Shown in pieces: positions 14,586 to 58,246 of a stretch of 64,000 bases of DNA (position 1 is the first letter of the stretch; each line of letters starts with the position of its first letter). Under the pieces are notes generated by a model. It worked only from the letters and a program-made list of their open reading frames with translations. It had not been told where the DNA came from and ran no database searches. Where the stretch lies: contig NC_092389.1 of assembly GCF_030028105.1 (NCBI RefSeq), forward strand, positions 56,917,241 to 56,981,240, read 5' to 3'. A program made the position numbers and the translations under genes. The DNA comes from Mobula birostris. Its lineage: Eukaryota.

Positions 14586-14589
14586 TTTT

Positions 14590-15935: not shown

Positions 15936-16072
15936 TTGATCGGGAAATCTCTGCTCTCCGTCCAGCAGAAAGTCCTTGGGGAGACATTAGTTGTCCACCC
16001 GGTTTCGTTCGGTCAAACCACGGGAAAGGTTCGTGTCGGCCACCAGACCGCGCCTGAGGCCTAGCGGCCTTT

Positions 16073-16225: not shown

Positions 16226-16253
16226 CTCTCTAATTCTCTGCTTCTCCCCCCAG

Positions 16254-32846: not shown

Positions 32847-33742
32847 TCAACGAATGAATCGAAGCATCGAGATGAGCGGATAATTCACCGCACTGATCAC
32901 CTGCTCCCTGAATTTCGATTGAGTCACCGCGTAAATAAATGTGTTCGTGCAGCAGCTGAAATCCCTCAACAAAAAACCGACGTTGTGAAAGATCCATTCA
33001 GAATCATTGAAATCGTGTCCTTTTCCTGTGACCTGATAAAATATGAAATTAATAACATTTGTCATCCACAGGAAGATGAAGTTGCCGGAGAGGGTGAAGA
33101 GTAAAACCACAGACCTCCTCCTGCTCTCCATCTCCGGGTCACTGCGGTTCTCCCCGTTGTTTTGACCCTTCAGCCCCTTACGGACCCGACTGGCCACTAA
33201 AATGTGTCTGACTGTCAGAGCGTTGAGCAGCAGGATCCCAGCGAAAGGGAGGAACGGAGTTAAAATTCTATCGAGCCAGTCGTACCCTATCCATCCTGGG
33301 TCAGTGAAATAATCTTCCATGTAGGTGCAGAGCCACGGTGCATTGTCGCTGATCTCTCTGGATTCCCGTGTGAAGTATCGAGGAATATTTTTCAGACAGA
33401 ACAGTACGCCGGTTGCTGTTAGAACTACAGCCGCATTTTTCCCGGTGCAATAATTTGTTTTCAGATTCTGGCAGCAAATGGCGACAAACCGATCAAAGGT
33501 GAACGTGACCGTGAACCAGACAGAACAGTCTGTAGCTGTGTACCTCAGCACATCGATAACACTGCACACAGGGGTGATGCTCAGAAAATTCCACAGAAAG
33601 TAATACCATTTGATCCGATACAAAATGACCCCGGTGACAATGGTCAGTAGATCGGCCGCTGCCATGGCCACCAGGTAGCGAGTGGTGCAGGTAGAGAGGC
33701 CGCAGTTTCCCCGGGACAGGATCACAATCGCCACTAAATTCA
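32847..33742 (-). CDS. GPR139/GPR142-like class A GPCR, paralogue A, exon 2
   Basis: ctag|TG-N-L-V..; YLVAMAAADLL (TM2), SVWFTVTFTFDRFVAIC (TM3), ECL2 Cys, CCTNTFIY..QSKFR (TM7/H8). Open to the stop codon; 323 aa with exon 1. Confidence 0.92.
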
Positions 33743-34504
33743 CTAGAGGGAGGGGGGGGCGAGAGAGAACAGAGAGAGAACAGAACAGACACTGGGCATT
33801 AATGATCACATTCTCTGGGTATTAACAAAGGATCGGGTTTCAGTTAAAGATCACGAGTGCGAGAGTCTGTGAACGGCTGCTAATATAACAGACACGCGTC
33901 ATACTGTCTTTTTTTCACTTTGGAAATAAGACGATGTGTGGGGAATTGTCGGGGATAAAATCGAGCTACATGAACAACAGCAATCGGTGCTCATCCCGAT
34001 TCCAGTCGCGGATGGGGCTGGTTTCACTGATTTGACCGTGACCGACCAGGCCTCCGGAATCTCAGTACCCAACGGGGCCGAGGAGCAATGCAGAGAGTGG
34101 TAACAAACATAAAACACTAACGAAGTCGGTAGGTCAGACAGCCTTCATGAAATTGAGCAATCTCTCGTTTCAGGACGAGACGCTTCTTCAGGATGAAGCG
34201 GTGTCCCAATTTACGAAGCGCCTCGGAGGAAGTGCAGGGACAACTCAGTAACCAGAGGCTGAGCGGCTGCTTTAATGCATTAATTCTACAGTGCAGTTTA
34301 TTTCCATAACACACGTCAGCAGAACCGTGGATACTGCTTCAGGTGATCAGACCCAATTTACTGACCAACATGCGGGGGATCCGACAGTGAGAGACTTCAC
34401 GGGGAGACATGAGACACAGGACCAGGTGTTCTTTCTGATCAATAACTCAGAAAGTGTGAACTTGGCAATTTAAACCTCTCCTGGTCCCCCTACGGCGAGA
34501 ACAG

Positions 34505-34830
34505 GCTGACCCCAGCACTGGGACAACTCTGTGCAAAATCCCATTAAAACCCGCCAAGTCACCCCTTCCCGGAGAGCTGCCTGTCCCCAGCACTGGGACA
34601 ACTCTGTGCAAAATCCCATTAAAACCCGCCAAGTCACCCCTTCCCGGAGAGCTGCCTGTCCCCAGCGCTGGGACAACTCTGTGCAAAATCCCATTAAAAC
34701 CCGCCAAGTCACCCTTTCCCGGAGAGCTGCCTGTCCCCTGCACTGGGACAACTCTGTGCAAAATCCCATTAAAACCCGCCAAGTCACCCCTTCCCGGAGA
34801 GCTGCCTGTCCCCTGCACTGGGACGACTCT
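34505..34830. repeat. Intronic minisatellite, ~4.3 x 75 bp, near-perfect
   Basis: Unit 'ccccagcactgggacaactctgtgcaaaatcccattaaaacccgccaagtcaccccttcccggagagctgcctgt'. Confidence 0.95.
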
Positions 34831-35078
34831 TGAGAAGGCGTCATGAATGGCAGTCACAACGCTGCAGTTAATTCCTTGAGTTAGAAAAGAGTCCCAGGTT
34901 TAGCCTCGTTTCCGATTAAATATAGAAAAGAAATCAGAATGTTGAATTGATGGAATGGATACCACTGACGGATATTTGTGCAACGAACATCAAGTTGGAA
35001 GTTTGTAAACTGATCATAAACAGGTTCACACCGGTTAACACACAGAAATACGGAACACGAATTGCTCTCCTCACTCAC

Positions 35079-35154
35079 CAGTTACTCCAAGGACCGCAAT
35101 GAATACGAAGGATATTTTCTCCACACTCTCGTACCTCTCCCACGTTGCAGACAT
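35079..35154 (-). CDS. GPR139-like paralogue A, exon 1 (76 bp)
   Basis: MSATWERYESVEKISFVFIAVLGVT-G|gtgagt; phase 1 matches exon 2; homologous to paralogue B exon 1. Confidence 0.88.
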
Positions 35155-35330
35155 GTTCTGTGTCCAGCGATTCCCCCAGCACCCCGTGCTACAGGGGATC
35201 TCGGAATGAAGCGTTGAAGCACCACCTGCCTGAGATATTAATACTATTAGCGACTGCCCAGGGACAGATTTGAAGAGTTTTAAAAATAAAGATGTTTAAA
35301 TTATTTACACACCGATTGCGTCAGACAAAT
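35155..35330 (-). promoter_or_regulatory. Conserved upstream block of GPCR A
   Basis: Alignable with 55800-55977 (+) and 48124-48292 (-). O/E-like TCCCTGGGCAG at 35254-35264 (-). Confidence 0.65.
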
Positions 35331-36059
35331 GAAATCCCCGCGGTGTCAGATTAATTTAGTGCATTAAATTTCAGATCATTTGTGGAAGTTAGATTGTACC
35401 AGCAAAGCTATCTGAACCTTTCGAGGTATCTTATCAATTAATTGTGCTTCCAATGTAAATATGTGCTTCAAAGGAACCATTTGTCAGACACAGAATATTG
35501 AAGTATGTCATTGTAGCTTGTGAAATTACATTGAATCTCCAACTGTCACCATTTTCCTCAGGAATATAATCTCTTGATGCAGTTTGTGCGAGGGAGGTTC
35601 TACCAAGAAAGTCTATAAGAAAATGCCTGTTTATGCTGATGAATAAACACTTTCATATCCATTAAACACTCCAATTTCTTCAGTGAGTTGGTCGTGGGCT
35701 GAACTTTTGGGAACTTGTACACGACCCAGCCCTAAACCTAACATATGGGCATCAAACCCAGCAGTCGAGTGAGGGGTGAAAGAACACGGATTGCGAGTGG
35801 TGGTGGGGGAGGGGGAGACGGGGGTTTTGAGAGCTGGGATCAGGGGGGGGAGCGGGGAGACTGGTGGTGTGTGTGCAATCGCTTTGAAGGTGCCCATGGT
35901 CGTTGGAGCCCGCATTGATGGCGCTGGAATCAAAGCGATTGCGCAACCACCGACTGCGACTCCAGCCTTGAACTCCGTGCTGCTGCTGAGACTCCCGCCT
36001 CCCCTCCCCCCACCACCACTCTGCAACCCCGTCTCTCTCACATCTCATCATCTACAGTC

Positions 36060-38640
36060 ACAGAATAGAGGGGCGTCCTTTTCGAACGGAGATTAGGAGG
36101 AATTTCTTTTAGTCAGAGAGTAGTGAATCTGTTGGATTCATTGCCACAGGCAGCTGTGCAGGCCGGATCTTTATGCGCATTTAAGGCAAAGTTGGATGTA
36201 TTCTTGATTGATCACGCCATGAAGGGATGCAGAGGGAAGGCAGAAGATTGGAGCTGAGGGGAAAACTGGATCAGCCATGATGAAATAGCGGAACAGACAC
36301 CGTGAGCCAAATGATCTTATGGTCTTTTAAATTTCCTTACCTCTCTCAGATCTCTTCTCCATCTTCCACGTTCTAAAGAATACATTCCTAACCTATTCTA
36401 GGTTTCTTTGCCACTCAGGTTCTCCAGACCCGGCAACACCCTTGTAAATTTTTCCTGTACTATTTCGGATTTCTTTCCATCCTTCTTGTATGCAGGTAGC
36501 TGAAACAGCAGGCAATACACCAACTTAGGCTTCAGCGAAGTATTATCTAAGTATAACATGCTATCGTCTATGCTCAGTATTTGATTGATGAATTCCAGTG
36601 TGCGAAAAGCTTTCTTAACCGACCTACCTGTGCGTAACTCCATTGAAGTGAATTATGGGCTTGTATTCCCATATCCCTTTGTTCTACTGGTCCCCTCCAT
36701 GACCTAGCGTTCACTGTGCAAATCCTACCCTGGGCTGGTCCTACCGAAGTCCAAAACCTCGCAATTGTCGGCCTTAAATTCCTTGTTCGCTGTCTACTAC
36801 ACACCCAATCCTGGACTCATCAGCAACTCTGCTAATTTAGTTTACTATTGTTTAGTTTAGTTTACCATATCGTCATATTGTCATGCGAATCACTCATACA
36901 GATAAGAAACAACAAAATACCAATCCCTGCGTCACATCAGTGGTCAGAGGCTTCCAGGCAGAGAGGCAAACATCTACTACCCGTTTTCGAATTTTACACA
37001 AAGCCAATGTCTAACGCAATTTACTACCTCACCTGAATGCCAAATTACGAAGCCTACACGCCCAGTCACCTATGTGGGACCTTGTTCAATGCCTTGCTAA
37101 AGTTTCTGCGGATAATATCCACTGCCTTGCCCTCATCCACTTCTAGCTCACTTTCTCTAAAATCTCTATGAGGTTGGTTAGATATGACCGACCACTCACG
37201 AAGCCATGTTGATTATCCTTCCTCAGTCCATGTCTATCCAAATACTTGTATATCCAGTGCCTTAGAATAACTTCCAATGACTTTCCCACAACTGATGTCA
37301 GACACACTGGTCCATGATTTACTGGTTTATCTGCAGTGTCTTTTTGAAACAAAGGGACAACTTTGGCCCTCCTCTAGTCCGCTGTTACCTGTTCTGTCGC
37401 TTGGTCCGCTGCGGCCTCTCCACACATCCCAGGCCTTGGGGATTTAACGACCCTGATACGCCACATGGTAGCAAGCACCTTCAGTTGTGTAATCTGCACA
37501 GCGTCCATGAAGTTGATGCTGCTCTCCCTTAATTCTATGCTTCCGTCTCCATACTAAATACAAATTCAAACACAATAATTTAAAATCATTCCCATCTGTT
37601 TTGGCTCCAGATATGGATTGTCATTGTGATCCTCCTGACGACTAATTTCGAGCCTTGTATTTTTTGCTCTTTGCATATCTTTGTGATTCTCCTTCACCGT
37701 GTCTGCTGGCGAAGCCTCAAACCTTCATTCACACTCTCGATTTTATTCTTACGTTTTCTCTTTCAGATCTTACAGATATTTTATTACACGAGCACCTTAT
37801 TTGTTCCTACCTGCTTAAAACTGCAATTTACCCCCTTTTTCTCTCTGAACGAGGGCCTCAATATCTCATGAAAAGCAAGGTTCTTTACATCGTTGTCTTT
37901 ACGTTTTACTCGGACAGGCACATGCAATCTTGGTTCTCTCAAAATTTGCTTCAGAAGACCTCCCGCTTAGCAAGTGCACCTTTGACAGAAAGAAAACCTG
38001 TCTCAATCCACACCTGATAGATCATTTCGGATACCATCAAAGTTAGTCTTCCTCCAATTTACAATCTCAACCGGCGGACCAGGCCTCTCCTTACTCATAT
38101 TTACTTTGCAGCTTACGGCACTGTGGTCACTGGATACAAAGCGTTCCCCCCACACATGACTGCCACCTGCACTGTCTCATTCATTAGCTGCAGATCCAGT
38201 CTCGCCTTCTCTTGCTGAGACTGATGAAGGAAACCTTCCTGTGCACACTTGATAAACGCGGCCAATCTGGTTCTCAGTTCCACCCACAAAGCCACACAAG
38301 TCGAGTTCTCCTTTCTGTCTTAGCGGAGCACTGATGTGATATTTTCCCTGACAAGTAACGCCACGCCTCCTACTTCAATGTCTCTCTCTCTGTCACGCCT
38401 AAAACAACCGAGCCCCAGATTATTGAGCAACCAGTTCTTCCCCTTCTGCTTCCAAGTCTCACTGATGGTCGCAACGTCATCATTCAGGGAGTTGATCCAG
38501 ATCCTGAACTCATCGTCTTGCACTGACAATTCTTGCACTGAAATATTCACAGCTCAGGGCACTAGTCGCACCATGCTCACCTTTTACTTTGTTGTTGGGC
38601 TCACCGACGTCTGCCTTCCACAGCATTTCCAATAATTGTA
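36060..38640. mobile_element. CR1 fragments: (+) 3' end ~36060-36325 and a long decayed (-) ORF2 ~36330-38640
   Basis: PVCLTSVVGKSLEVIL..QHGFVSGRSYLTNLIE and DVATISETW..GGVALLVRE. Confidence 0.85.
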
Positions 38641-38844
38641 CTGGCATTCTTCTTCCTGTCCCCATGCAAATCGGGTTGAAATTCTACCCTGCAGCAGTCA
38701 CAAACCTTCCCGCCAGGATATTAGTGTTCCCCCCACTTGCGGTGCAAACTATTCCTTTCGTACAGGTACACGATCGCTGGAAGAGAGCCAAATGATCCAA
38801 AAAATCTTATTTCGAGGATTCTGTAGGATGTCGACAATCGAACG

Positions 38845-39765: not shown

Positions 39766-39769
39766 ACTT

Positions 39770-40905
39770 CAAAGTTCAGAGTAAATGTATTACCAAAGTA
39801 TATTGTTGTCACGGTATGCAACACTAACATTTATTTTTGTGAGCATACTCAGCAAACTGAAGGATACTAACTATACCAGGATCAATGAAAGATCAACAAG
39901 AGTGAAGAAGACAACAAAGTGTGCAAATGCAAAATATATACAAATGATAATAACATGAGATAATGGGATAAAACGTCCTTGAAAGTGAGATGATTGGTTG
40001 CGGGATGAATATCATGATGGGGCAAGTGAAGTTGGGTTAAGTTATCCCTTTTAACTCACGTCCTTGAAAGTGAGATGATTGGTTGCGGGATGAATACCAT
40101 GATGGGTTAATTCAAGAGCCTGATGGCGGAGGGCTCGGAACTGTTCCTGAACCTGGTGGTTCGAGACCTCGGGCTCTTCTACCTTCCAACTGATGGTATC
40201 AGCGTGACCTGCGTGGTAGAGGTCTCCATTGCTGGATGCTGCTTTCCTACGACAGCCTTTTATATAGATATGCTTCGAGGCTGGGTGGGCTTCACCTATC
40301 GTCTGCGGAGAACAGAGGAATCTGGGAACACAATTCCATAATCCAAGGTAGGTTCATGAAAAGAGCGTTTGGCTCATTGGCCTTCATAAATCAAAGGGCT
40401 GCGTACATGAATTGGAATCTTATGTTGAAGTTGCACAGGATGCTAGTGAGGATGTTAGTGTCAGGATGCTGTTTGGTCATCTGCCTAGAGTAGAGATATC
40501 AAGAAGAATGAAAAATTACACATGAAAATTTATAATAATGCTCCCAGAAGCTGAGGCCCTGAGTTGGAGAGAAAAATTCAATAAGTTTTTCTCTCACCCA
40601 AATTGAGACTTTCCCCCTCAAGATGGGTGAGCGATGAACAAATGGTCAGTGGTGAAGGACAAAAACATAATGTTTAAGGCAAGTTGAGAAGGATCTTCTT
40701 TACTCAGAGGGTAGTGTGAGTGTGGAATGAGTTGAAGAGGAAGTGGTGAGTAAAGGTTCATAGAAACATAGAAAACATACAGCACAATCCAGGCCCTTCG
40801 ACCTACAATGCTGTGCCGAGCATGTCCCTACCTTAGAACTACCTAGTGTTTACCCATAGCTCTATCTTTCTAAGCTCCATGTACCCATCAGGAATCAGTC
40901 TCTTA
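39770..40905. mobile_element. Rex1-like 3' end (-) ~39770-40275, CR1 (+) ~40320-40750, CR1 3' end (-) 40758-40905 truncated by the LTR
   Basis: 'ctgttcctgaacctggtggt' Rex1-type DNA; (catagaaa)n CR1 tail ending abruptly at 'agtctctta|TGTGACG'. Confidence 0.7.
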
Positions 40906-43900
40906 TGTGACGTAACCGGCAACAATGAATATCAATCGAGTCAGGTTATATAAAAACAGCCAAACATGTACTAAACACGGATAAACAATAAAACACAAAC
41001 GGAGATCTTAACCGGAAGTTAACCGCTATGCGGCTGTTCAACAAATCGTCACTCGGTACTGGTTCTTAAAACGATAAATGCGAAAACAGTTCTTAAAGCG
41101 ATAAAATCAAATACAGTTCTGAAAATGGTAAATTCCGAAGTCCAACAGAGTTGTACATTCAATTGGGAGAGACTTTTCTGTAGAAAGATTTCTTCCTAGA
41201 CGCGACTTTACTGTTGGTTCTGTCCAAAGGATTCACGATGAAGGAAATAAACGGCTTAAAACAACTGGCCTTACTTTCTAGAGAGCAAATTCTGCATGAA
41301 CTACCCTCGTCTTTCGGCAGGAGTTATCCGCGATGCAGGTTGCTACTTCTGCAACTCAGTAAGGTCGATCCTTTATTAAACTGTCGAACATCCCGAATAC
41401 TCTTAATCCTTCATATCCTGTACTTCGATAAAGTCTTCACTCTCCAATACTTCTGAAAAGGTATATCACAAATCTACCAGAAAGGGCAAACTGCCAATCC
41501 AACACTATTGTACTTTACAATAGAACGTAAAACTCCGTTTTAAATAATGAAACTGCGTCATAAAATAAATACGTAACAGAAACGGAGACACAGACTAACG
41601 TTCTAGCTGGAAAACTAAAAACTAACTGCGTCACCTGAGATCTTCCCTTTTATACCCGTGGTGAACATGTCATCATGTGACCTCACATAGGCGGGAAAAT
41701 TACATCAGGTGACCTCCAAAAGACCATTACATCATTCTCACAAGAAAGTCACAAGATCTCCTTGAACTATGTAACATCTCCCATCACAAAAAAAAAGTTG
41801 TCTCTTAAGGAACAAAATTTTCGCAATTAACAATTTACACAACAAAAAATACAAAGGTATAAAATTTACAACATACACAGTATATACAGTCTTGCCTTTC
41901 AGCACTTTACAAACTAATATACAGTAGGAGTGGTACAAATGATAAAATACCGCTCCTTTAAAAAAAATCATTGTGCATTTAACATCTAGATAGACAATCA
42001 GCGATCACATTATTTTCACCCTTAATATGAGTGATCAAAATATCGTACTCCTGCAACATTAAACTCCAATTTAATAATCTTCTATTTTTATTTTTCATCT
42101 TACTCAAAAACACTAACGGATTATGACCGGTATAAACTGTGACTGGTTTATGAGGTGAACTAACATACACTTCAAAATGTTGTAAAGCCAAAACAAGAGA
42201 TAACAATTCTTTTATTCTAATGTTGAATAATTTCTTTGATGGACAATAAATTTCTTAGAAAAATTATCTACCGGACGATCAACTTCATCACCATCATCTC
42301 CTTGAAGTAACACTGCTCCTGCCGCTTCATCACTAGCACCTACAGCTAACGAAAATGTTTTTTCATAGTCAGGAGATTTAAGTACAGGTTGACTACATGT
42401 TATAGTTTTCAATTTATCAAATGCCTCCTGACAGGACTCTGTCCAAATAAATTTTTCGTTTTTCTTCAAGAGATTAGTTAATGGAAGAGTAATGTTCGCA
42501 AAATCCTTAGAAATTTTTCTGTACTATCCTACCATACCCAAGAATCTTCTCAGAGTTTTTCTACCAGTTGGAGTGGGTACTTCAAAAATTGCCTGAACTT
42601 TCGCCTGAATGGTTGCTAATTTTCCCTGACCCACAACATAAGCAAGGTAAGTCACTGTGGCAGGGCCAAATTCACTTTTAGCTAAGTTAATAGTTAAGTT
42701 ATCTTTTTAAAGTCTCTCAAATAATTTCTCCACCGCAGTAATATGTGCTTTCCACGTATTATTTCCTGCAAGTAAATAATCAATAAAGGCATTTGTATCT
42801 TTCAATCCCTGAATCACACTATTAATCATCCTCTGAAAAGTACCTGGTGCACTCTTCATCCCAAATGGAAGAACATTATAATCATGTAACCCAGATGGGG
42901 TTACAAATGCTGAAATCTCTCTACCTCTATCCGTCAATGGAACACACCAATAACCTTTCAACAAATCAATTTTTGTAAGGAATTTGGCTTGTCCAACTTT
43001 ATCCACACGATCATCTACCCTAGGGATTGGATGTGCATCAGTTTTTGTCACAGTATTCACCTTCCTGTAATCTGTACAGAACTATTGTCTGGCTTAGACA
43101 CCATAACACACGGTGAACTCCAATTCGAATTAGAATAACTAACAATATCATTCTCTAACATGTACATAATTTCTTGTTCAGCAAGTTCACATTTTTCCCT
43201 GTTCATTCGATATGGATGTTGTTTTATGGGTTTTGAATCTCCCACATCTACATCATGTGTAGCTACGGTGGTTCCTCTAGGAACGTCTGGAAATAAATCC
43301 CTATATTTAAAAATTAACTGTTTCATCTGCTCTCTCTGCTCTGGCTGCAACTGAGCTAATTTTTCATCAATATTTTCTAGAATTTTTTGAATTTGATAAC
43401 CTGATGAAATAATGTTGGGTTTAAAATTAGTTTCAGATGAATCATCCATTAAGTATTTATCAAGATCAGACTCATTATTGATCACAGCAGTTATAGGAGC
43501 AGCTTCTCTCTCATAATATGGTTTTATCATATTTATATGACACAGCTGTGTTTTCTTACTTTGATCTTGAGTTTTTACCACGTAATCCACATCATTTACC
43601 TTAGATTTAATCTCAAAAGGACAATGCAATTTAGCTTGTAATGGGTTCGTTTGCATCGGGTAAAGAACCAACACCTTATCGCCAGGCTTAAATAACCTCA
43701 TTCTAACTTCCTTATCATACCAAGTCTTTATCTTCTCTTGAGCCAATTTTAAATTTTCCTTTGCCAAGCTACAAGCTTTATATAATCTTTCTTTAAATTT
43801 TAAAACATAATCTAGCACATCAGTGTGTACCTCTTTATTAATCCACTGTTCCTTCAACAAGACCAAAGGTCCTCGAACTCTACGCCCAAACACAAGTTCA

Positions 43901-45678
43901 AGAGGACTAAAACCTAATGATTCCTGTACTGCTTCCCTTACTGCAAAAAGTAATAAATGTATACCTTCATCCCCGTCCTTTTCATTTTCCACACAATATG
44001 TACTAATCATAGTTTTTTATTGCACAATGGAATCTCTCCAAGGCTCCCTGTATTTCTGGATGATAGGCTGATGATATCATCTGTTTTGTTCCCAGTTTAT
44101 AAACTATCTGCTGAAACAATCCAGACATAAAATTACTACCTTGATCCGGTTGTATTTCCTTCGGCAACCGAAAATAAGTAAAGAATTTTATAAGAACTTT
44201 TGTCACAGTTTCGGCTGTTATATTCCTAAGAGGTACTGCCTCTGGAAACCTAGACGCTGTGCACATAATAGTTAAAAAATATTGATGTCCAGTTTTAGTT
44301 TTTGGCAAAGGACCTACATAGTCCACAATGATTTTTGAGAACGGCTCACCAAATACTGGAATTGGTTGCAGTGGGGCCACTGGAGTAACTTGATTCGGTT
44401 TGCCCACAATTTGACACGTATGACACGTTTTGCAAAATACTGTCACATCTTGTCTTAAACTAGGCCAATAGAAATGTTTAGACATCTTGTTCATAGTTTT
44501 ATTTTCACCTGACTGGCCACCCAAAGGTTTACTATGAGCCATAATTAAAATCTCATTTCGATAAACTTTAGGAACTACTACCTGATGATTAACTTCCCAT
44601 TCCTCACCGGCAGGAATTCTAGGCGATCTCCACTTTCTCATTATTACCCCCTTTTCAAAATAATATCCTACTGGAACTTTTTCAATTTCACTACCGGGAA
44701 GAGTTTGTTCCTTTAATTTAACTATCTCAGGATCTCTACCCAGCTCTGCAATCATCTTCTTCCGAGATAAGGACAAATCTTCCTGGTCAGTCCTACTACC
44801 AAAATCATGATCAAACAATGTAGGTAAGAAAGTTTCTGATACATCCTCAAAGTTTGAATCTTGAGTTGAACAATCATAGGTAACAACCTCATCCTTTACA
44901 TCAGTCGTTTTAGCCATAGCTCTTGTTACAACACAGGAAGAATCTGTGCTAGAATCCTTCTGTGGTTCCTCAGAATTAAGATTTATTGCCAAATGCACTT
45001 CAGCAAAAACTTGTCCACCTGCTAAATCATTCCCTAACAAAAGAGAAACATCATTCACAGGTAAACTGGATTGTAGTCCTACTTTAACAACCCCTGTAAC
45101 TAATCCTGACCGTAAATTTACTATATGTAAATGTACTGGCATGAGGGCACTCCCAACTCCCCCTATATAATTTACCTCAGCAATGTCAGACTCAGGACTA
45201 AACTGTAGCACACTGTCCAATATTAGTGTTTGAGAAGATCCAGTATCTCTAAGTATTCTTATAGGCACTGAATTGGATCCTTCTTTCTAGGATACAAATT
45301 TTTCTGTTATAAAAGTTGCATATCCATTCTTAACTTGGTCAGACATGACAAATCTTCATTAATATTTTCAGAACCCTGTGAATTCACAGGTTTCTCCATA
45401 TGCTGCACACAAGCATCTGTGACGGTTTCTTTCTCTTTCCGTTTCAATCGAAAGCAGTCAGCTACTACATGTCCAGGTTTCTTACAATAATTACAAATAA
45501 TACCAAAATGTCTTTCCTTCTCATGTCTCCCTTCATCCTTACTTTACTCGCTAACTTCAGATTTAATTTCTAGTTTATCTTGATTCTTTGTGCTATTTTT
45601 CCTTTTAAAAGTTCTACCTAGAGAAACTTATTCTTATGAATTAAAGCATACTTATCAGCTAATTTAGCAGTCTCCTGC

Positions 45679-46192
45679 GATATAAACAGAAAATAATCTG
45701 CAGATGCTGGGATCAAAGCAACACTCACAATACGCTGGAGGAAATCAGCAGGTCGGGCAGCATCCGTGGAAACGATGGGTCGACGTTTCGGGCCAGAACC
45801 CTTCGTCAGGACTGAAGAGGGAAGGGGCAGAGGCCCAATAAAGAAAGTGGGGGAGGATGGGAAGGAGAAGGCTGGTAGATTCCAGGTGAAAAAACAGTAA
45901 TTTGAAAGACAAAGGGGTGGGGGAGGGGAAGCAGAGAGGGGATAGGCAAGAAAGGTAAAGAAGGAATAGGGGAAAACACAATGGGTAGTAGAAGGAGGCG
46001 GAACCATGAGGGAGGTGATAGGCAGCTGGGCGAGGGGACAGAGTGAAATAGGGATAGAGGTAGGGAGGGGGAGGGCATTACCGGAATTTGGAGAATTCTG
46101 TGCTCGTACCAAGGGGCTGTAGACTACCTACACGGTATATGAGGTGTTGCTCCTCCAACCTGAGTTTAGCCTCATCATGGCAGTAGAGGAGG
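45679..46192 (-). mobile_element. Penelope-like element 3' end inserted in the Gypsy gag
   Basis: Minus strand LLYCHDEAKLRLEEQHLIYRVGSLQPLGTSTEFSKFR* (GIY-YIG endonuclease C-terminus), a pyrimidine tract, the hammerhead and the family tail. It splits gag ..DTATL|QETAKLAD. Confidence 0.88.
45777..45814 (-). ncRNA. Minimal type I hammerhead ribozyme (intact core, short stem I)
   Basis: Minus strand cagtc-CTGACGA-a-gggttctggccc-GAAA-cGTC-gaccc. Confidence 0.75.
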
Positions 46193-48108
46193 CAATGTAG
46201 CAGTGTCCCTTTCATTTCAGTATGTTCTCACTTCAACAGGAATCCTTCTTTTAAATTCCTCCAGTAAAATCAACTCTTTAATATATTATGCTCCCCATTC
46301 ACATTTTTAGTTGATAACCATCTCTCAAAATTCACAGATTTCTCATAGGCAAATTCCACATAAGTTTTTTTTTCTGCAGATTTCTTCAAATTTCTGAATC
46401 TTTCTCTATACGCTTCCGGAACCAACTCATATGCCATTAATATATGCTGTTTAACAATATTATAATCCAGTGCTTGATCAGCGTTTAAAGCTGTGTACAC
46501 TTGTTGTGCCTTGCCCTTAATTCCACTTTGTAACATCACTGGCCACTGTTCTTTCGGCCAGCCTAAACTCAGAGCAATACTTTCAAAATGCTGGAAATAT
46601 TTGTCCACTTCAGCTTCAGTAAATGGAGGAGCCAAAATAACCTCATGACTAGCCATAAACTGTTTCTTAGAACCAGAAGACTGATTTCCCATCCTTAATT
46701 TCTCCATCTCTAACTCAAATTTCCTCTGTTTTTCAGCTTCTCTATCTTTAAATTCCCTTAATTTATTTGTCTCTCTTTCATCAAATTCCCTTTTTTATTA
46801 GCCTCTCGTTCGGCTATTTGCGCTTTAAATCTTCCAAACTTCATCTGTTCAAGATGTAGCTGCATTTCCAGATTACTCATTGGAAACCTATCTAACACAT
46901 CATCATCACACGTTTTCAAACTAACATATTGCTCAGCGATTTTTCTGTGAATTAAAGCCTTTGTGGTATTCTTCGTAATTCCCTTAATATCCAACTCCCT
47001 CGCCATCTCCAGTACAACAGGTTTTCTCGCAATCTCTAAAAACACAGGGTAAGGCGTCTCCATAATGTCGTCAACATTCATTGCTGCTGAATACCACTCA
47101 CATACCGATCAAACTTAAAAAAAAAACGGATATTTCCCTTTTCCAAATCAGAATGGCAATTAACAGCACTTAAACTCAAAAATTTTGGAACAAGATCCCG
47201 GACGAGCCCCCACAAATTATGTTACGTAACCGGCAACAATGAATATCAATCGAGTCAGGTTATATAAAAACAGCTAAACATTTATTAAAAACGGATAAAC
47301 AATAAAATACAAACGAAAACCTTAACCGGAAGTTAACCATTATGCGGCCGTTCAACAACTCATCACTCGGAACGGATTCTTAAAAAGATAAATGCAAAAG
47401 CAGTTCTTAAAGCGGTAAAGTCAAATACAATTCTTAGAATGGTAAATTCGGAGGTCTAACAGATTTATACATTCATTTGGGAGAGACTTCTCTGGAGAAG
47501 GATTTCTTCATAGACGCGACTTTCCTGCTGGTTCTGTCCAAAGGATTCACGATGAAGGAAAAAGAAAAAACGGCTTTTAACAACTGACCCTCATTTCTAG
47601 AGAGCACCTTCCATGAACTTCCTTTCTCCTTTGGCAAGAGTTAAATTCGATACAGGTCGCTACTTCTTCAAGGAAGAGTCAAGAATGTCGATTCTTTATT
47701 AAGCTGCCAAATATCCCCGACTTCTCTTAATCCTTCATATCCTGTACTTCGATGAAGTCTTCACTCTCCAATGTTACTGAAAAGATACATTAACAAACCT
47801 AGCAGCGATTGTCAAACTGCTGGTTCAGACTTCTATTTCTTATGTTAGAACATAAAACTCCGTTTTAAATCAACACTGCGTCGTACTGCAAATACACAGC
47901 TGAGCCGAGTATCTCATTGACGTTCGAACTGGAAAACTAAAAAAAAATAATAACTAACTGCGTCATCTGAGGTCTTCTCTTTTATACCCGTGGTGAACAT
48001 GTCATCACGTGACCTCACATCGGCGGGAAAATTACATCAGGTGACCTCCAAAAGACCATTACATCATTCTCACAAGAAAGTCACAAGATTTCTTTGAGCT
48101 ATGTAACA

Positions 48109-48292
48109 CAACATAGCAGATACTCTCTCTGTCCAGTGATCTGTCCTCCTGTGGTACAGGAAATCTCTATGAATAAAATGTCGAGGCACACATGCCTGGG
48201 GTTTTAATACCATTTAGCAACTCCACAGGGACAGATTTCAACAGATTTAAAAATAGAAGTGTTTAAATTATTTACCAATTGATTACATCAGA
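48109..48292 (-). pseudogene. Relic of a third GPR139-like gene: promoter and first codons only
   Basis: Minus strand 'acagagagaGTATCTGCTATGTTG|tgttacat(LTR)' aligns with B 'acagagaaaATGTCTCCAATGTTG'. The upstream block aligns with the A and B promoters. Confidence 0.8.
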
Positions 48293-49600
48293 CAGGTGGC
48301 ATGCAAAGGTTTGGGCACCCCAAGAGATTTGAGCTCTCAGATAACGTTCAACAAGGTCTCAGACCTTAATTGCCTTGTTAGGGCTACGGTTGTTCACAAT
48401 AATCGTTAGGAAAAGCCAAGTTATACAAATTTCAAAGCTTTACAAATACCCTGACTCCTCAAACCTTGTCCCAACTATCAGTAGCCATGGGTTCCTCTAA
48501 GCAGCTGCCCGGCAGTCTGAAAATTAAAATAATTGATGCCCACAAAGCGGGAGAAAGCTAAAAGAAGATAGCAAAGCGTTTTCAGGTAGCCGTTCCTCAG
48601 TTCGTAATGTAATTAAGAAATGGGAGTTAACAGGGACGGTGGAGGTCAAGTTGAGGATTCGAAGACCAAGAAAACTTTCCGAGAGAACTGCTCGTAGAAT
48701 TGCTGGAACGGCAGATCAAAACCTCCGTTTGACTGCAAAAGACCTTCAGGAAGATTTAGCAGACTCTGGAGTGGTGGTGCACTGTTCTGCTGTGCAACGA
48801 CACCTGCACAATTATGACCTTCATGGAAGAGTCATCAGAAGAAAACCTCTCCTGCGTCCTCATCACAAAATTCAGCGTCAGAAGCTTGCAAATGAACATC
48901 TAAACAAGCCTAATGCATTTTGGAAACAACTCCTGTGGACTGATGAAGTTAAAATAGAACTTTTTGGCCGCAATGAGCAAAGGTATGTTTGGATAAATAG
49001 GGTGCACAAATTTAACGAAAAGAACACCTCTCCAACTGTTAAACACGCGGATGGATTGATCATGCTTTGGGCTTGTGCTGCAGCCAGTGGCATGGGGAAT
49101 ACTTCACTGGTAGAGGGAATAATACATTCAATTAAATACCAGAAAATTCTGGAGGCAAATATCACACTGTCTGTAAAACAGCAGAAGATGAAAAGGAGAT
49201 GGATTCTACAACAGGATAATAATCCCAAATACACCTAAAAATCATAGAATTCGAAGTCTTTTGCAAGGAAGAAGGGACGAAAATCCCCCAAACAAGAATT
49301 GAAAGACTATTAGCTGACTTAGCAAAAACGTTTACAAGCTGTGATATTTGCCAAAGTGGGGGTTACTAAGTACTGACCACGCGGGATGTCCAAACTTTTG
49401 CTTCGGGTCCAATTTCCTTTTTTTTTTGTTATTTTGAAAATGTGAATGATCGAAATATAATAAGTAATCTTGCTGAAAATATTAAATAAACATGTCATTT
49501 TAACTTTATGCTGTTGGAAATCAGGTCATCCTTTACTCACTTAGATATTCACAGTTACAGAAATTTTGACCAGAGTTGCCAAAACTTTTGCGTGCCTCTG
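48293..49600 (+). mobile_element. Tc1/mariner DNA transposon, defective
   Basis: Termini 'caggtggcatgcaaaggtttgggcaccc' and 'gttgccaaaacttttgcgtgcctctg'. Transposase RRPRKLSER..LWTDE..TVKH..QQDNNPK, then a stop and loss of the SPDLNPIE segment. Confidence 0.92.
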
Positions 49601-50159
49601 TTACTATCCGTCCTGGTCCTCTTACACTTGTAGATTCTTAACTCAACCCGTAAGGATTCAACATCTTCTGCTCGCTTTCTAACGACTTGATGTCATTGTT
49701 TACTAGGAGAATCAATAAATGAAAACAACCTTGAGATCTGACACACCTCCAAATTGGCAGAAGCCCTCAAGTCCCTGTATACGTCGGTGTAAAAACCCAA
49801 ATTCGCGTACATACCACAAGCTCTGTGCACATCCCTCAGTCCGTGCACTCCCCAAAACCACTAACCCTCTCATGCACATCACATTATCCCAGACCAAGAA
49901 TTATTCCAAACAATTCACCAAGTAGCTGCCTCCACTTTAGAAAATTAGTAAGAATAAAGTTCCCTGAGAGTGCATGTATTATCAAAGTATCTATAAATGA
50001 AATAACTTTGAAATTTGACACTACTGCAAATCCACCGACACCCCCAAATATGTGTGCACCCAACGATACGCACCCCATATTCGACAACGCACTGCCACAT
50101 TCCGAAAGGCCTAGCGTACCTCCAAATCGCCGCGCAAAAACAGATGTGGACTAAACCAA

Positions 50160-51365: not shown

Positions 51366-51489
51366 CGAGTGCCGATTAGATATATTTTTCGAGCAGCTCG
51401 TGGTTAAGCTCACTGGGCGATCTGATATTCTGGATTGAGTTTATTGCAGTGAACCCGATTTGATTAGCGAGGTTAAGGGAAAGGAACTC

Positions 51490-53180
51490 TAAGTTAAAGG
51501 GTCGTGGCTCAGGAATCCCTCGGATTCAGTCCATTTGAGCTCGTGTTTGGTCACGCTGTGAGAGGGTCTTTGAAACGAATGGGGGAGAAATATCTGGGTG
51601 ACGAACCTTCTCCTGCTAACCTTTTAGATTATCTGTCCAAGTGTCGCTTTAAGTATAGTGGGGCATATAAGATGGCAAGGGAAAGTTTGAAGGCAGCTCA
51701 GGTAAAGATAATATACTAGGTGTGATCGGAATGCTAACCACAGAGTGTTTTCTCCAGGAGGCCAAATGCTTGTCCTGCCTCCATTATTGGTTCCGTGTGG
51801 TGCAGTAATGCAACTTAGTAAAGACTCCAAATCTTAACTGTAAGACCCGTCATTGTCATATTAACCTTTTGATACTTTAAAATTGGTTATAAACGCTCTG
51901 TGCCGCACGGTGGAGCTCCATCTGCCGCCTCTCAGCCCAGTGTTGAGGTCTCCATCTGCTGGTGATGAGAGAAATGTTGCTTCCATTTCTGAACTGATTA
52001 TTTGTGGTATATTACGAAATTCCAAAATACCGGCTGATTTGGTCACTCAGCTCTCTTAACTGAACCCTCAAAAGCGCTCTGGCGTCTTAAAGGGAATCAT
52101 CAGAATTCGGCCCTCTTCCCTGATATTCCATCCTGTACGAATGTGCTTCAGCATAATATTGCTGTGGGTAACATCTGCACAGGGTAAACCACATTAAGCG
52201 CCACTGGGTGAACCCTATTAAGCGCCATCTCCCATGAAAGGAAGTAAGGTAAATGCAAAAACTAAGCTTGACTCCTGTCATAGTCCTCGTCTAGACGATT
52301 GTATTGACTAGGCAACCCAAGTGCCATTAACACAGCGGCCATGAGATTTCTGCTTTTCCGAATCCTGGTGATTTTTGCCAGAACAAAGTCATGGCTTTTG
52401 GAATGAATCCCAGCTGGAAGAGGTGTTCAGTTGGTGAACGGTGCGGAATTAATACTGATGCTCTCCAAGTGTGAATTTGAGCAGACTACAGTTACCTACC
52501 TGGGTAAAGTTGCACATCATGTCAAGTTTGCTTTATCGGGGCTGAGGTGGAAGTCGTTGCCAGCATCATAGAGAAGGCATTGTTGAGTTTTGCTCCCTCT
52601 GTAGCAACTCCTGATTTCAGCCGGTCCTTTGTTGCTTATGCTAGGGATGTCTGTGCTCCTCTCAGTTGATTTAATAGGGGTGGAGCATCCTGTGTACCAT
52701 TTCTATAAGAAACTCGAGGTCTGTATGAAACACTACTACGCAAAAAAGAGGGAGGCGTTAGCCCTTATTCTTGCCCTGAATCATTTGATGTCTATATTTC
52801 TTCCAATTCTCCACTCATTGAGTATGCACTCATTAACCTCTGGTCTCTGTCTGCAGAAACAGGAATACGAATCAGCGGTTAATGCGGTGGAGTTTATTCC
52901 TGCAGGGTTATGACCCACCTTTTTGCTACATTTGTGGAAGGAACAATGTGCTTGCAGAAGCTCTTCCGAGGACGAAGGTGTACCTGGCGTTCTATGTTTT
53001 TTTATGCAACATATTGCATGCATTATTGGGGTAGCTTTAGGTTGCCGCAGAACAAACTTTCTGATGGGGGGTGTTATGACCTGCAAAATTCCTGGCATGT
53101 GTGTTATCTTTAACCCGTCTGGCAGTTCCCTGGGACACCTGCAATTCCCGTTCCATTGTTGGAACATGCCGGAAACTGCT
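51490..53180 (+). mobile_element. Heavily decayed Gmr1-type Gypsy fragment (IN C-terminus, RT, RH, PPT, LTR start at ~53071)
   Basis: QESLGFSPFELVFGH.VRG at 51504, later KREALALILAL (RH), then 'gatggggggTGTTATG'. Confidence 0.7.
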
Positions 53181-53497
53181 TAAAAACAAAGCCATACCCA
53201 TCATATTCCCCCTCCCCCCGCCAAATATCACCTATTCTTCAGCCAGCACTACCACACTAAACACCACAATTTTTCCCATTACCCTTATCTTAGTAAGTAC
53301 CATTTGTTTGTAATTCCTGTTGTGGTACTTCCCGAGAGCGGAGATTTTAACAACGATTTCGGCCATAAATAGAAGGATCAGGTGTTAGAGTAAGAACTAC
53401 TCCTGTCATTGTCCATAAGGAAATAAGAATGACCTAAACTCTAAATATGATTCAAAATGTTAATATTTTACAAGGAGTGTTGTCAAATGTGTAATCC

Positions 53498-53731
53498 NNN
53501 NNNNNNNNNNNNNNNNNNNNNNNNNNNNNNNNNNNNNNNNNNNNNNNNNNNNNNNNNNNNNNNNNNNNNNNNNNNNNNNNNNNNNNNNNNNNNNNNNNNN
53601 NNNNNNNNNNNNNNNNNNNNNNNNNNNNNNNNNNNNNNNNNNNNNNNNNNNNNNNNNNNNNNNNNNNNNNNNNNNNNNNNNNNNNNNNNNNNNNNNNNNN
53701 NNNNNNNNNNNNNNNNNNNNNNNNNNNNNNN
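53498..53731. other. Assembly gap (N run) adjoining a (CA)n microsatellite
   Basis: 234 Ns followed by (ac)n. Confidence 0.99.
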
Positions 53732-53919
53732 ACACAGACGTACACACACACACACACACACACACAGGCACATATAGATAGAGACAAACATGCACACGCA
53801 CATGACCACACTTCAGTATCCGCCTTCCCAGCTCTATCAGCATCCAGCGTGCTACGATTAAAACACACTTACACACTTCGACTGCTGAGGTTGAATTCAC
53901 CGTCCCACATGAGTCTGCA

Positions 53920-55005
53920 AATGTTGTGAATATGACTAAGTCATCGAAGACATTGGAGGGGCTGGTAGAGATGAAGGTTAAAAGGGCAATTTTGCCTGGC
54001 AAATCTGTGGGAATTGTTTGAAGAAATAGCAAGCAGGGTAGACAATGGAGAAGCAGTTGTGCACTTAGATTTACAGCATGCCTTTATCAAGCTGCCACGC
54101 ATAAAGCCAGGAACTCGTGGTATGACAGGAAATATCCTTGCATGGACAAAGCAGTGACTGATTTGTAGGAGGTAAAGAGTGGGAATAAGGGGAGCCTTTT
54201 CTGGTTGACTTCCGGTGAGTAGTGGAGTTCCACAAGGGTCTGTGTTGCGACTGATCATTTTTATTTTATTTGTCCATAACTTGAATGATGGAATTCATGG
54301 TTTTGTTGCAATGCTTGCCGACGATATGAAGATAAGTGGAGGGGCAGGTAGTTTTGCGGAAATGTAGAGGCTACCCAAGGACACAGATTCATTGAATTGG
54401 CAAATAAATGGCAGATGGACCTCTGTGCCGGAATGTGAACGGTCTTGCACTTCGGTGAGGACATTAAAGTGTTGTCTATTTTATGAATGGAGAGAAGACA
54501 AACAAAAAACAAAAAAACGAGGAACAAGGGGACTTGAGAGTCCTTGTGCAGGATTGCATAATAACTCATTTAAATGTTGAGTCTGTGGTGAGAAGGCAAA
54601 TGCAATATTGGCATTCATTTCAGGAGGACTAGAGTATAAAACGAAAGGGTGAAATACTGAAAATGTATAAAGCACATGTGCGGCCTCACTTGGAGTATTG
54701 TGAGCAGTGTTGGCCCTTTATCTTTGGGAGGAGATAGTGAAACTGGAGAGGATTGAAAGTGGGTTCAGGAAGATGATACAAGGATTGAATGGCTGGTCAC
54801 ATCAGAAACATAAATTATAAAGTATAAACATATGTTGGCTCTGGGCCTGTATTCACTGGAATTCAGAGGAATGAGGCGTACCTCATTGAAATTTATCGAA
54901 TAGTAAATGGCTTCGATAGAGTGAATGTGGAGAGGATATTTCATATGCCTAAGCGTCCCAATGTTGCTGCTTTATGGGATGGTCTTCTGAGCTTATGGTC
55001 TTATT
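53920..55005 (+). mobile_element. Degenerate CR1 RT to 3' end
   Basis: 'agtggagttccacaagggtctgtgttg' (SGVPQGSVL) and 'cggcctcacttggagtattgtgagcag' (RPHLEYCEQ). Confidence 0.85.
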
Positions 55006-55799
55006 TACAACCACAAACAAGCATTTTGTTGAAGACCCTCTCAGTATGGCCCCCTAAACTACAACGACATATTTTACTTCAATCGGTTGTGCCCGACTAC
55101 TGGTTTATTTGAAGTGCATATTTGCATTGGACGCACATATAATTTGTGACACTTCTGAAGGTACAGAGAGCTTTGTAGGACAAGTTAACTATCACAAATG
55201 GTCTAAGATCTTCTGAAATCTGAGAACTCTAATTACCGTTGTGAGGGTTGACACATGGACTGCAAGGAGTGCAGGACGACGCATCTTGTATCGGTTCCAT
55301 TGAATGTGGTGTCATGGTTGGCTCGGACGCTGTGGGCTGGAGGGTCTGTTCCTGCGCTTTACCTTTCCCCGTTCTATGTGGCTGACAGACAAGCAGAGGG
55401 CAGCGAATTTTATTTTCTGAGACCATATGTGTATCTCAATGGACATTGACATATTTTTGACCCAGTGACAAGTTTGGTACGTCTTACACGAACAAGCTGA
55501 TGATAGTTGCTGGTAATCAGACGTGAGAGATAAGGTTGTAGTGAGATGAGCTGCGATCACAATTGGTGCAGCATAAGATTGGAGCACCGTTTAACACTCA
55601 GATGATCGCATAAACCGATGGATGAAAGCTGTACCGACAGAAGATGAAGTGGAGAGCTGGGTCAAATGGCGATTGAAGCAATGTCCTCTATGCTGGATGA
55701 ATGCTACTCATAATTTACAGCCATCAGTCACATCACAATGTTCATTGTCCGTAGTTTCACAAATAATTCGCTAAATTAGTCATAAGCTGTCACACTGGG

Positions 55800-55977
55800 A
55801 CCTGTTTGACATACTGTAATCGGTTTGTAAATAATTTAAAAATCTTTATTCTTAACTGTGTTGAAATCAGTCCCTGTGGAGTCGTTAAATGGTATTAAAA
55901 ACCCCAGACATGTGCTGCCTCAACATTTTATTCCGAGATCGCCTATAGTACAGGGGACAAATAACTAGACAGAGAAA
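55800..55977 (+). promoter_or_regulatory. Conserved upstream block of GPCR B
   Basis: Homologous to the A and relic upstream blocks. TAATTT at 55832, O/E-like TCCCTGTGGAG at 55871-55881, TATA-like 'tattaaaa' at ~55894. Confidence 0.65.
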
Positions 55978-56053
55978 ATGTCTCCAATGTTGGATAGGTA
56001 CCTGAGTGTGCAACGATCATTGTACGTGTTCATTGCCGTCGTTGGAGTTCTCG
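55978..56053 (+). CDS. GPR139-like paralogue B, exon 1 (76 bp)
   Basis: MSPMLDRYLSVQRSLYVFIAVVGVL-G|gtgagt; phase 1. Confidence 0.88.
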
Positions 56054-57338
56054 GTGAGTGACCAGAGAATTTATGTTTTGTATTCTGTGTGTTAACTTGG
56101 GTGAACATGTGTGAGATTATTTTACCAGCTTCCAACTTGATGCTCATTGGACCAATATACTTCAGTGATAACGATCCCGTCAATTGAACATCTTTATTTT
56201 TCACATTAATGTTAAATGAAGCTATATTTATACCTCAGCTCTAACACCATAAGACCGTAACTCAAGGGATCGACTCCGACGTTGCTCTTGCCTGAAACGA
56301 CGCGTTGCATAGAGTGGTACCAGTGCTGCGGCGTGCAACCCTCCGGCAATGTGTGACTGGGAGAGTTTTACATCGTGTGTTTGACTGTTTCTGAGTTATT
56401 GATCAGAGTGAACACGTGACCTTTAATCTGACCTTTTCCAGAGTTTACCTGTACCGGGAACGGGTAGCTCTTTGGGACGGTGTGCCTGGGGTGGGGGGTG
56501 GGGGGTGGAATTCAGTGGGACTTTGCCCAGAGTTGTATCAGTGTTTGGGACAGGTGGTGCTCTGGGAAGGCCTGATGGGGAGGATTTTAATAGCATCTTG
56601 TCCAAATTTGTACCAGTGCTAGGGATAGGTAGCTCTACGGGAGCGTGTTACTGGGAGAGTTTCACCTTGTGTCACTAGTTCTGAGTTGTTGATCGGTGTG
56701 AACCTGCTCCTGCTTCTGTACTAACGTCTCCCTGTAGGGTCTCAGAGTCAATAATTGTGTCCGATCAACTGAAATAGGGTCAATGGATTGAACTGTGTCA
56801 TCGAATTGCACTGAGCTGTAGAGTTAATCCATTAAATATACCTTTTGTTACTAAGATGTCTCAACATTCACTATGAGACTCGTCGTAAACAGAGTCACCA
56901 CTTCACCCTGAAGAAGGGTTTCGGCTCGAAAAGCTGAGTGTGTTAAAGTTCATGAACGCTGCCTGACCCGCTGAGGTCCGACAGCATTTTGTGAGCTTTG
57001 CTCCCCTCTGTATCCCTTCTCGGCCAACTCAGATGCTGACTTTCCAGAGGCCTGGCCAGTCACTGTTAAATCAATGAAACCGGCCCCATCAGCGACTGGA
57101 ATTGGGTTAGAAACAATTGTTGGTGCTCATGTAGCTCGGTTTTAATCTCCGATGATTCGGCACAATTCGTCTATTCCTAACACTGAAGAAGACTGGTCAG
57201 AGACAGCGTGACCAGTGATTTTAGAGCGGAAGCCGTTCAGCGACTCTAGCACTACCGACATTTATCTGAAACCCGAACCTGTGTTAATGCCCGGAGAACG
57301 TGTTCAGTAATGCCGCATGTCTTTTTTTTTCTCTCCAG

Positions 57339-58246
57339 TGAATTCAGCGGCGTTTGTGATCCTGTCCCGGGGAAAGTGCGGCCTCTCGACCTGCACCACT
57401 CGCTACTTGGTGGCGATGGCAGCGGCCGATCTACTCACCATTGTCACCGAGGTCATTTTTATTCAAATCAGACTGTATTACTTAATGTGGAGTTTTCTGA
57501 ATATTACCCCTGTCTGCACGGTTATCGAAGTCCTGAGGTTCACAGCCGCAGACTGTTCTGTCTGGTTCACCGTCACTTTCACCTTTGATCGGTTTGTCGC
57601 CATTTGCTGCCAGAAGCTGAAAACAAAATATTGCACCGGGAAAACTGCGGCTGTGGTTCTGACAACAACCGGCGTAGTGTTCTGTCTGAAAAACGTGCCA
57701 CGGTACTTCACGTTAGAATCCACAGAGATCATCGACAATGTACCGTGGTTCTGTGCATACAGGGACCGTGTCTTCACTGACCCAGGGTGGGTGGGATACG
57801 ATCGGCTAGATACGGTTTTAACTCCATTCCTCCCTTTCGGCATAATTCTGCTGTTGAACGCTCTGACAGTCAGGCACATTTTAGTGGCCAGTCGGGTCCG
57901 TAAGGGGCTGAAGGGTCAGAGCAACGGGGAGAACCGCAGTGACCCGGAGATGGAGAGCAGGAGGAGGTCTGTGGTTTTACTCTTCACCCTCTCCGGCAAC
58001 TTCATCCTCCTGTGGGTGACGTACGTTGTAAATGTCATATATTATCAGCTCTCAGGAAGAGGATTCGATTTTACTGATTCTGAATGGATCTTTCACCTCG
58101 TCGGGTATTTGCTGAGGAATTTCAGCTGCTGCACAAACACGTTTATTTACACGGTGACGCAGTCGAAATTCAGGGAGCAGGTGATCAGCGCAGTAAAATA
58201 TCCGGTCACTTATGTGCTTTATTTAATTAATAAAGTCCCGTCCTGA
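57339..58246 (+). CDS. GPR139/GPR142-like class A GPCR, paralogue B, exon 2
   Basis: ctccag|TG-N-S-A..; YLVAMAAADLL, FTFDRFVAICC, CCTNTFIY..QSKFREQ. Open to TGA; 327 aa in total. Confidence 0.92.

Follow-up and report, generated by a model that had tools for sequence, protein, structure and literature searches.

Receptor genes A and B and the size of their family

The window, a stretch of 64,000 nucleotides from Mobula birostris (contig NC_092389.1, positions 56,917,241 to 56,981,240), carries two intact two-exon genes for G-protein-coupled receptors (GPCRs) of class A, here called gene A and gene B, which lie on opposite strands (Table 1). Contigs of this 4.0-Gb genome are given C-numbers below, and the window lies at C24:56.9 Mb. 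The products, of 323 (A) and 327 (B) amino acids, share 247 of 323 residues. An earlier note made from the letters alone (the sequence-only reading) had described the same architecture for the two genes, and both indeed have a first exon of equal length and a phase-1 GT-AG intron. Its counts of differences were exact: one of 53 residues in the LLLNAL..GNFI tract, which runs from transmembrane helix (TM) 5 through intracellular loop (ICL) 3 to TM6, and 14 of 40 in the RYFT..LDxxL tract, which covers extracellular loop (ECL) 2 and the top of TM5. The first tract also holds a run of 85 nt without any A/B difference. The motifs DRF and NTFIY and a threonine at position 6.50 in place of proline were found in both; this loss of the TM6 proline holds for A and B but not for the family as a whole, in which P6.50 is retained in 11 of 62 members.

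Table 1. Features of the window, with positions counted from its first nucleotide.
Feature	Position	Strand	Remarks
Gene A exon 1	35079..35154	minus	76 nt; short N-terminus and most of TM1
Gene A exon 2	32847..33742	minus	end of TM1 to stop; Pfam 7tm_1 E 6.8e-20
Gene A phase-1 intron	33743..35078	minus	contains 75-bp minisatellite 34506-34830
Gene B exon 1	55978..56053	plus	76 nt
Gene B phase-1 intron	56054..57338	plus	
Gene B exon 2	57339..58246	plus	Pfam 7tm_1 E 1e-18
Gene B TM5-ICL3-TM6 tract	57848..58006	plus	residues 196-248; gene A counterpart 33233-33075
Gene B ECL2/TM5-top variable tract	57701..57820	plus	residues 147-186; gene A counterpart 33380-33261
Promoter 9-mer TGACGCAAT of gene A	35315..35323	minus	conserved motif
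Third-copy remnant	48109..48287	minus	about 180 nt; 81% to gene B upstream region
Long terminal repeat (LTR) retrotransposon	40903..48108	minus	LTRs 47217-48108 and 40903-41776, 82% alike; broken; integrase and reverse transcriptase pieces
Tc1/mariner-type transposase open reading frame	48537..49235	plus	just upstream of third-copy remnant
TRIM pieces	2563..16795	plus	RING/B-box 2563-2922; PRY-SPRY 16250-16795; belong to TRIM array interleaved with receptors

Class A membership is assigned from 7tm_1 matches above the cut-off together with seven helices, the AlphaFold model being of low confidence (pLDDT 59). The class hallmarks N1.50, D2.50, C3.25 with an ECL2 cysteine, D/E-R3.50, W6.48 and N7.49xxxY7.53 were each present in 60-62 of 62 members. 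Pfam searches of A and B returned 7tm_1 only, with no match to 7tm_4, the odorant receptor (OR) profile. The modelled protein was the close relative P0002, whose ECL2 fell below pLDDT 50 and which led in Foldseek to generic peptide and chemokine receptors; because the model was weak and these matches were generic, pocket positions were taken from sequence numbering. The arrangement of a variable outside and a fixed inside recurred among 100 paralogues of the C24 type, 72 shark proteins and 62 distant-subfamily members. Very probably, this pattern marks a repertoire with diversified pockets, in which many ligands would feed one downstream pathway.

Two degenerate and mutually exclusive TM3 patterns recovered 1,821 and 645 loci genome-wide, and control patterns none. 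Together they captured 163 of 167 intact members in hand, and 18 sampled matches of the first pattern comprised 17 family members and one chance match. A single 29-nt ICL3 string had 439 exact occurrences in the genome. When the genome was searched with gene B, 131 of 5,140 candidates were scored, all with E<1e-152; 124 lay within C24:54.1-67.8 Mb and two had stops. Receptor clusters were found on C1, C3, C4, C5, C6, C9, C11, C12, C17, C24, C33 and C34. The exon-2 frame was open in 29 of 57 loci picked by the patterns (2/9, 9/11, 8/18, 0/2 and 10/17 by set), where the set of 18 had been chosen because the top-scoring list missed its loci, which biases the fraction downward. With about 2,400 family loci, these samples suggest some 1,200 intact genes (between roughly 1,000 and 1,500), with exon 1 seen for part of them. 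The proposal of a birth-and-death family thus gained support, with thousands of clustered loci, about half of them broken, and lineage-specific clades, and the genome holds far more than a few copies. By comparison, the same genome gave two strong matches to the classical OR profile.

Databases held 2,610 related clusters at 90% identity (E<=1e-3), and the named ones among the best 120 all came from a shark, skate or ray; the nearest named proteins to the window receptors come from rays. Holocephalans had no member among the named matches listed, in searches that were not aimed at chimaeras. Members stand in RefSeq under automatic best-hit labels. Young, near-identical copies include two groups of 15, each within 5%. 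Equal-scoring copies about 183 kb apart at C24:56.11, 56.29 and 56.48 Mb point to a large recent triplication that carried receptors and TRIMs. At C6:177.6-177.9 Mb, receptor matches alternate between minus and plus strands with a period of about 39.5 kb over about seven repeats, and this array is either a two-gene cassette amplified in tandem very recently within the region of the major histocompatibility complex (MHC) or an assembly artefact.

Ancestry and the relation to GPR139 and GPR142

The best match in PDB was human GPR139 (E 3e-15 by profile), and the next-nearest solved structures by sequence were peptide receptors. GPR139 and GPR142 are orphan receptors of class A that L-Trp and L-Phe activate. 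Each is present in this genome as a true, single gene, GPR139 on C11 (83-93% identical to its orthologues in other sharks, coelacanth and most tetrapods) and GPR142 on C28. A and B are only 23-25% identical to the C11 gene. In a maximum-likelihood tree (52 rows, LG+F+G4, 290 columns; made from an earlier 72 rows with 29 dropped and 9 added), GPR139 and GPR142 formed one clade (support 100/100) apart from the expanded family. The family was instead sister (100/100) to a gene of amphibians (frogs, salamanders and a caecilian) and sturgeon that forms a single cluster in each species; the 25 matches listed included no amniote. Frogs apparently keep a single orthologue of the expanded family. The sister gene (P0350, P0415-P0434) carries the database label 'probable GPR139' but is not GPR139.

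Orthology of A and B to GPR139 or GPR142 was therefore rejected, given the separate clade, the low identity and agonist-site residues that are not kept. The label 'GPR139-like' stands insofar as the family belongs to the same superclade and GPR139 is its nearest known relative; it misleads insofar as the kinship is distant and the true GPR139 and GPR142 are separate genes. Shared with these two receptors are a phase-1 exon-2 acceptor just before N1.50, placed as in GPR139, N5.58 with W6.48, and the automatic RefSeq name. The family differs in having C3.25 paired with an ECL2 cysteine and a DPEMExRRxS stretch in ICL3, which has no counterpart in GPR139. It is best described as a cousin of GPR139 that is not confined to cartilaginous fishes and, among the searches made, expanded only there. 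Several subfamilies are common to sharks and rays.

The family, the amphibian/sturgeon gene and two low-copy orphan lineages (one of coelacanth and silverside, one a single gene of anchovy and ray) formed a clade with support 99/100. In its accessible part, Rinne et al. 2019 (PMC6504862) describes three extra 'GPR210' subtypes in gar, coelacanth and fishes, all low-copy genes, and contains no shark data; our clade fits those three subtypes, but one of its branches here has thousands of loci. A single orphan GPCR of the superclade at C3:115.34 Mb (L163) groups with the anchovy gene (99.9/100) and is probably another 'GPR210' subtype. UniProt H3B118 is presumably the entry for GPR210B, going by accession arithmetic.

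The variable outer half and the conserved inner face

Ratios of non-synonymous to synonymous change (omega) were estimated from 100 distinct C24-type coding sequences, drawn from 128 intact genes among 151 loci after identical copies and nine distant rows had been removed. Regions were set beforehand by Ballesteros-Weinstein numbering, and the pocket positions were those of the generic class A set. Omega was 0.95 in the pocket, 0.72 in the rest of the outer half, 0.37 in the TM core and 0.29 in the intracellular parts, and a tree-free pairwise estimate gave 0.95 in the pocket, as against 0.36 (0.22-0.56). A FUBAR-like grid test placed 18 sites above a posterior of 0.9, 16 of them in the outer half (Fisher p 2e-5; twice the log-likelihood difference, 2dL, 27.8), including 2.61, 3.29, 3.32, 3.33, 6.55 and 7.39. 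With segment-specific trees, 16 sites were found (2dL 17.4). The site-wise omega >1 signal is thus focused on the outer half, as the proposal of a diversified pocket had anticipated, and selection along these genes is not uniformly purifying.

Pocket positions vary likewise among the 72 shark proteins. The TM residues of the GPR139 agonist site given in the available portion of PMC12775434 are D84, E105, E108, R244 and N271. The columns matching this site have an entropy of 3.1-3.6 bits in 62 members, and four are among the selected sites; D2.61, E3.29, E3.32, R6.51 and N7.39 of GPR139 correspond to I, E, R, Y and Y in gene B. The ECL2 tryptophan is mostly retained. Because the agonist-site columns are hypervariable, the family as a group is unlikely to consist of Trp/Phe sensors.

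On the intracellular side, ICL1, ICL2, ICL3 and helix 8 are kept. D227, R233 and S236 of ICL3, together with D3.49, R3.50, N5.58, W6.48 and N7.49, were invariant in 62 of 62 members, and the DPE..RR motif also occurs in the amphibian and sturgeon genes. The DNA of ICL3 is itself unusually uniform. Among 18 subfamily representatives, the proportion of differences at four-fold silent sites was 0.027 in ICL3; the outer half reached 0.256 and the intron about 0.23. The few ICL3 variants are scattered across the tree. Within the B subfamily, a PHI-type test gave p 0.001. Silent uniformity reaches a 66%-identical subfamily on another contig (0.13 vs 0.54) and is gone between subfamilies at <=51% identity (0.50-0.77). 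Since it depends on homology in this way, ICL3 was likely homogenised by gene conversion among similar copies; saturation of silent sites between distant subfamilies spoke against a DNA-level element in ICL3, which was rejected. Purifying selection on the protein is nevertheless real and old, as the same residues are kept even between subfamilies that have reached saturation at silent sites. The sequence-only reading had named a conversion tract as the explanation that would undo its case if it alone accounted for the identity of A and B in ICL3. Conversion probably contributes, silent sites there being about ten times more uniform than in the outer half or the intron, but it is not the sole cause. 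In contigs from other sequencing runs, ICL3 pieces were 95-97% alike, which is compatible with conversion and constraint alike.

Genomic company and candidate functions

Receptor loci (at least 86) and TRIM PRY-SPRY exons (36) alternate along C24:54.0-58.85 Mb, and receptors and TRIMs also lie together at the ends of contigs C4, C5, C6 and C33. On C6, two MHC class I alpha-2 exons lie inside a group of 40 pattern matches (176.4-178.0 Mb), which is flanked by further class I exons at 174.9-175.1 and 178.5-180.2 Mb. Twelve sampled C6 matches (176.4-182.4 Mb) were family members with 42-51% identity to gene B. One of these MHC-linked subfamilies includes a horn shark member and so predates the shark-ray split. 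In sawfish, a supplementary MHC table (Verissimo et al. 2023, PMC10751288) contains 13 genes labelled 'probable GPR139'. Ten of them are consecutive, with MHC-Ib genes on either side and B2M nearby, and others adjoin the C4 gene and TRIM39-like genes. The main text of that paper never mentions them, and its two shark sheets carry no gene names. We assume that these sawfish genes are family members. Linkage to MHC class I therefore holds for the C6 subfamilies and for sawfish but not for A and B on C24.

In the promoters, a TGAYGYAAT 9-mer was found near -178 in 50 of 64 distinct sequences, compared with 1% of shuffles. It resembles C/EBP-ATF sites and may act as one. The 9-mer also occurs at 48282-48290 (minus).

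These observations can be joined in a mechanism. The family would evolve by duplication and loss, with segmental duplication seeding new copies. Each receptor would bind different outside molecules through its variable pocket, and all would signal through one shared G-protein interface. Gene conversion would reset an ICL3 tract of about 150 nt among copies >=65% alike, while the outer segments would escape. The ligands may be a range of peptides or small metabolites, perhaps of microbial origin or released by damage, and the site of action may be leukocytes or mucosal or skin sensory cells. Given a repertoire, the company with TRIM, MHC-Ib and the C4 gene tilts its use towards immune or barrier sensing, which we put at slightly better than an even chance. 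The combined proposal, an elasmobranch-expanded GPCR repertoire with varied pockets and a shared signalling face used most likely in immune or barrier cells, comes close to even, if just short of it. On balance we lean towards a wider statement, that sharks and rays have more than 1,000 intact receptors, a set comparable in size to the odorant receptors of mammals, that this set arose from a single ancestral orphan gene of vertebrates and has old branches in the MHC, and that these receptors provide germline-encoded, pocket-diversified sensing, as innate immunity or as an extra sense of smell, with a signalling face standardised by conversion. Contigs from four presumed-RNA runs (116-200 per run) contained exon 1, exon 2 and also intron pieces, with no exon 1-exon 2 joint among the rows listed (11 joints were unlisted), and were not used as evidence.

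Expanded innate-immune families include TRIM-B30.2, NLR-B30.2, FPR and MRGPR. The receptors resemble such families in being co-amplified with TRIM-B30.2 arrays and in pairing a recognition part that varies with a signalling part that is homogenised. The searches run gave no relationship to FPR or MRGPR.

Several points weigh against this reading. The locus counts contain pseudogenes, at least one chance match (1 of 18 sampled) and possibly haplotype duplicates on unplaced contigs; L021, for example, equals L019 and L020 in score and ICL3 sequence. An omega near 1 over the whole pocket (pairwise 0.95, CI 0.62-1.48) is expected from relaxed constraint too. When restricted to the 18 subfamily representatives, the site test gave three sites (2dL 9.1); the test was run with our own custom code, and the eight null simulations set against it (0-3 sites, 2dL 0.4-6.2) were made without recombination. 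Across the representatives, the PHI-type test gave p 0.85. Neither the gene B promoter nor the C17-type promoters examined have the TGAYGYAAT 9-mer, and each of the two LTRs of the nearby retrotransposon contains it twice (41699-41734 and 48031-48066). A neighbourhood of TRIM and MHC genes is weak functional evidence, since in mammals OR clusters too are found next to TRIM genes and within the extended MHC.

The same repertoire might instead be used by sensory neurons of the nose, mouth or skin, each cell expressing a single receptor, as an extra olfactory or taste family that would replace the scarce ORs. We regard this as possible, though unlikely. It draws support from about 1,200 intact copies as against two strong 7tm_4 matches, from an OR-like design with a very short N-terminus and nearly all coding sequence in one exon, and from hypervariable pocket positions in TM2, TM3, TM5, TM6 and TM7 with fixed intracellular loops. 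Database GPR139 orthologues also have Pfam matches to Srw/Srx chemoreceptors, and Atlas neighbours include Srw-type clusters. Cartilaginous fishes have few odorant receptors according to the accessible part of PMC10116579, and sharks smell keenly all the same, so that a sensory role could explain this ability. Like the vertebrate OR, TAAR and V1R families, this one forms birth-and-death clusters with many pseudogenes, its genes are compact, and its pocket varies while the intracellular loops are fixed; it differs from them in ancestry, and A and B have no 7tm_4 match. Against a sensory role stand the repeated interleaving of the clusters with TRIM and MHC-Ib genes and published work, in the portions available, that describes the shark nose as microvillous and V2R-expressing. 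The available text of PMC11979771 likewise has no GPCR among the 50 most specific genes of a catshark brain and olfactory library; this point is weak, because the list lacks V2Rs as well and paralogues would escape notice through multi-mapping.

Amplification could also have been mostly passive, the receptors having been carried along with TRIMs in duplication-prone, often subtelomeric domains, with a small functional set, most copies redundant or silent and a relaxed pocket. The broken half of the sampled loci, the large groups of near-identical young copies, the overall pocket omega and the TRIM genes amplified in the same regions fit such a history, and conversion alone could preserve ICL3 DNA among close copies. 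It is nonetheless improbable in view of the low omega of the intracellular parts and core, the residues that stay invariant where silent sites are saturated, the subfamilies common to sharks and rays and the site-level omega >1 above the null. Least probable, and in our view very unlikely, are receptors for self or conspecific peptides (on gametes, in the reproductive tract or in MHC-linked individual recognition) that co-evolve within species: old subfamilies do lie among MHC class I genes in two batoids and peptide receptors follow GPR139 among solved structures, but most copies lie off the MHC contig (C17, C24, C33, C34) and nothing links the family to gonads.

An expanded GPCR repertoire is a known kind of system; what appears to be new is the family itself, along with its size, the MHC/TRIM setting and the conversion of its signalling loop. 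No paper on the family or its expansion was found in a search that left subscription papers outside, and the unread supplements of PMC11979771 and bioRxiv 2025.06.08.657570 may list such genes. The family is unmentioned in the main texts of PMC11979771, PMC8455134, PMC11406177, PMC10751288, PMC11886862 and PMC12863176, and the supplements of PMC10529500, PMC7677710 and PMC13186322, where readable, do not name it; the main text of bioRxiv 2025.06.08.657570 does not mention it either, its sole GPR match being GPR91. In a survey of tandem clusters in batoids, the accessible part names Pcdh, V2R and SUCNR1. In its available portion, PMC8455134 speaks of a 'relative paucity' of GPCRs in cartilaginous fishes, a statement that about 2,400 loci, roughly half intact and standing under one automatic name, would overturn. 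If immune, the family would amount to an innate sensing system associated with MHC and TRIM genes.

The TRIM RING/B-box/PRY-SPRY family has at least 150 close PRY-SPRY copies (377 candidates), with arrays at C24:54-68 Mb and C6:196-209 Mb, the second on the contig that bears MHC class I. A search for MHC class II beta gave two weak matches at C34:25.4 and 28.8 Mb, between receptor clusters at C34:20.3-20.9 and 35.6 Mb; class I lies on C6.

Between A and B, the sequence-only reading had placed a third, destroyed copy. A remnant does exist but consists of a promoter, 5' untranslated region and the first six or so codons, with the first ATG gone, and no exon-2 remnant was found between the two genes. 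The LTR retrotransposon starts at the base adjoining the remnant and cuts this copy. The minisatellite in the gene A intron has 4.3 copies that are 97% alike, and degenerate relatives occur in the gene B intron at about 56305-56700. No 26-bp satellite was seen near A or B. Other tandem arrays in the window lie at 5406-6197 (period 56), 16039-16242 (period 34) and 60004-60234 (period 36), and the period-34 array immediately precedes the TRIM PRY-SPRY exon.

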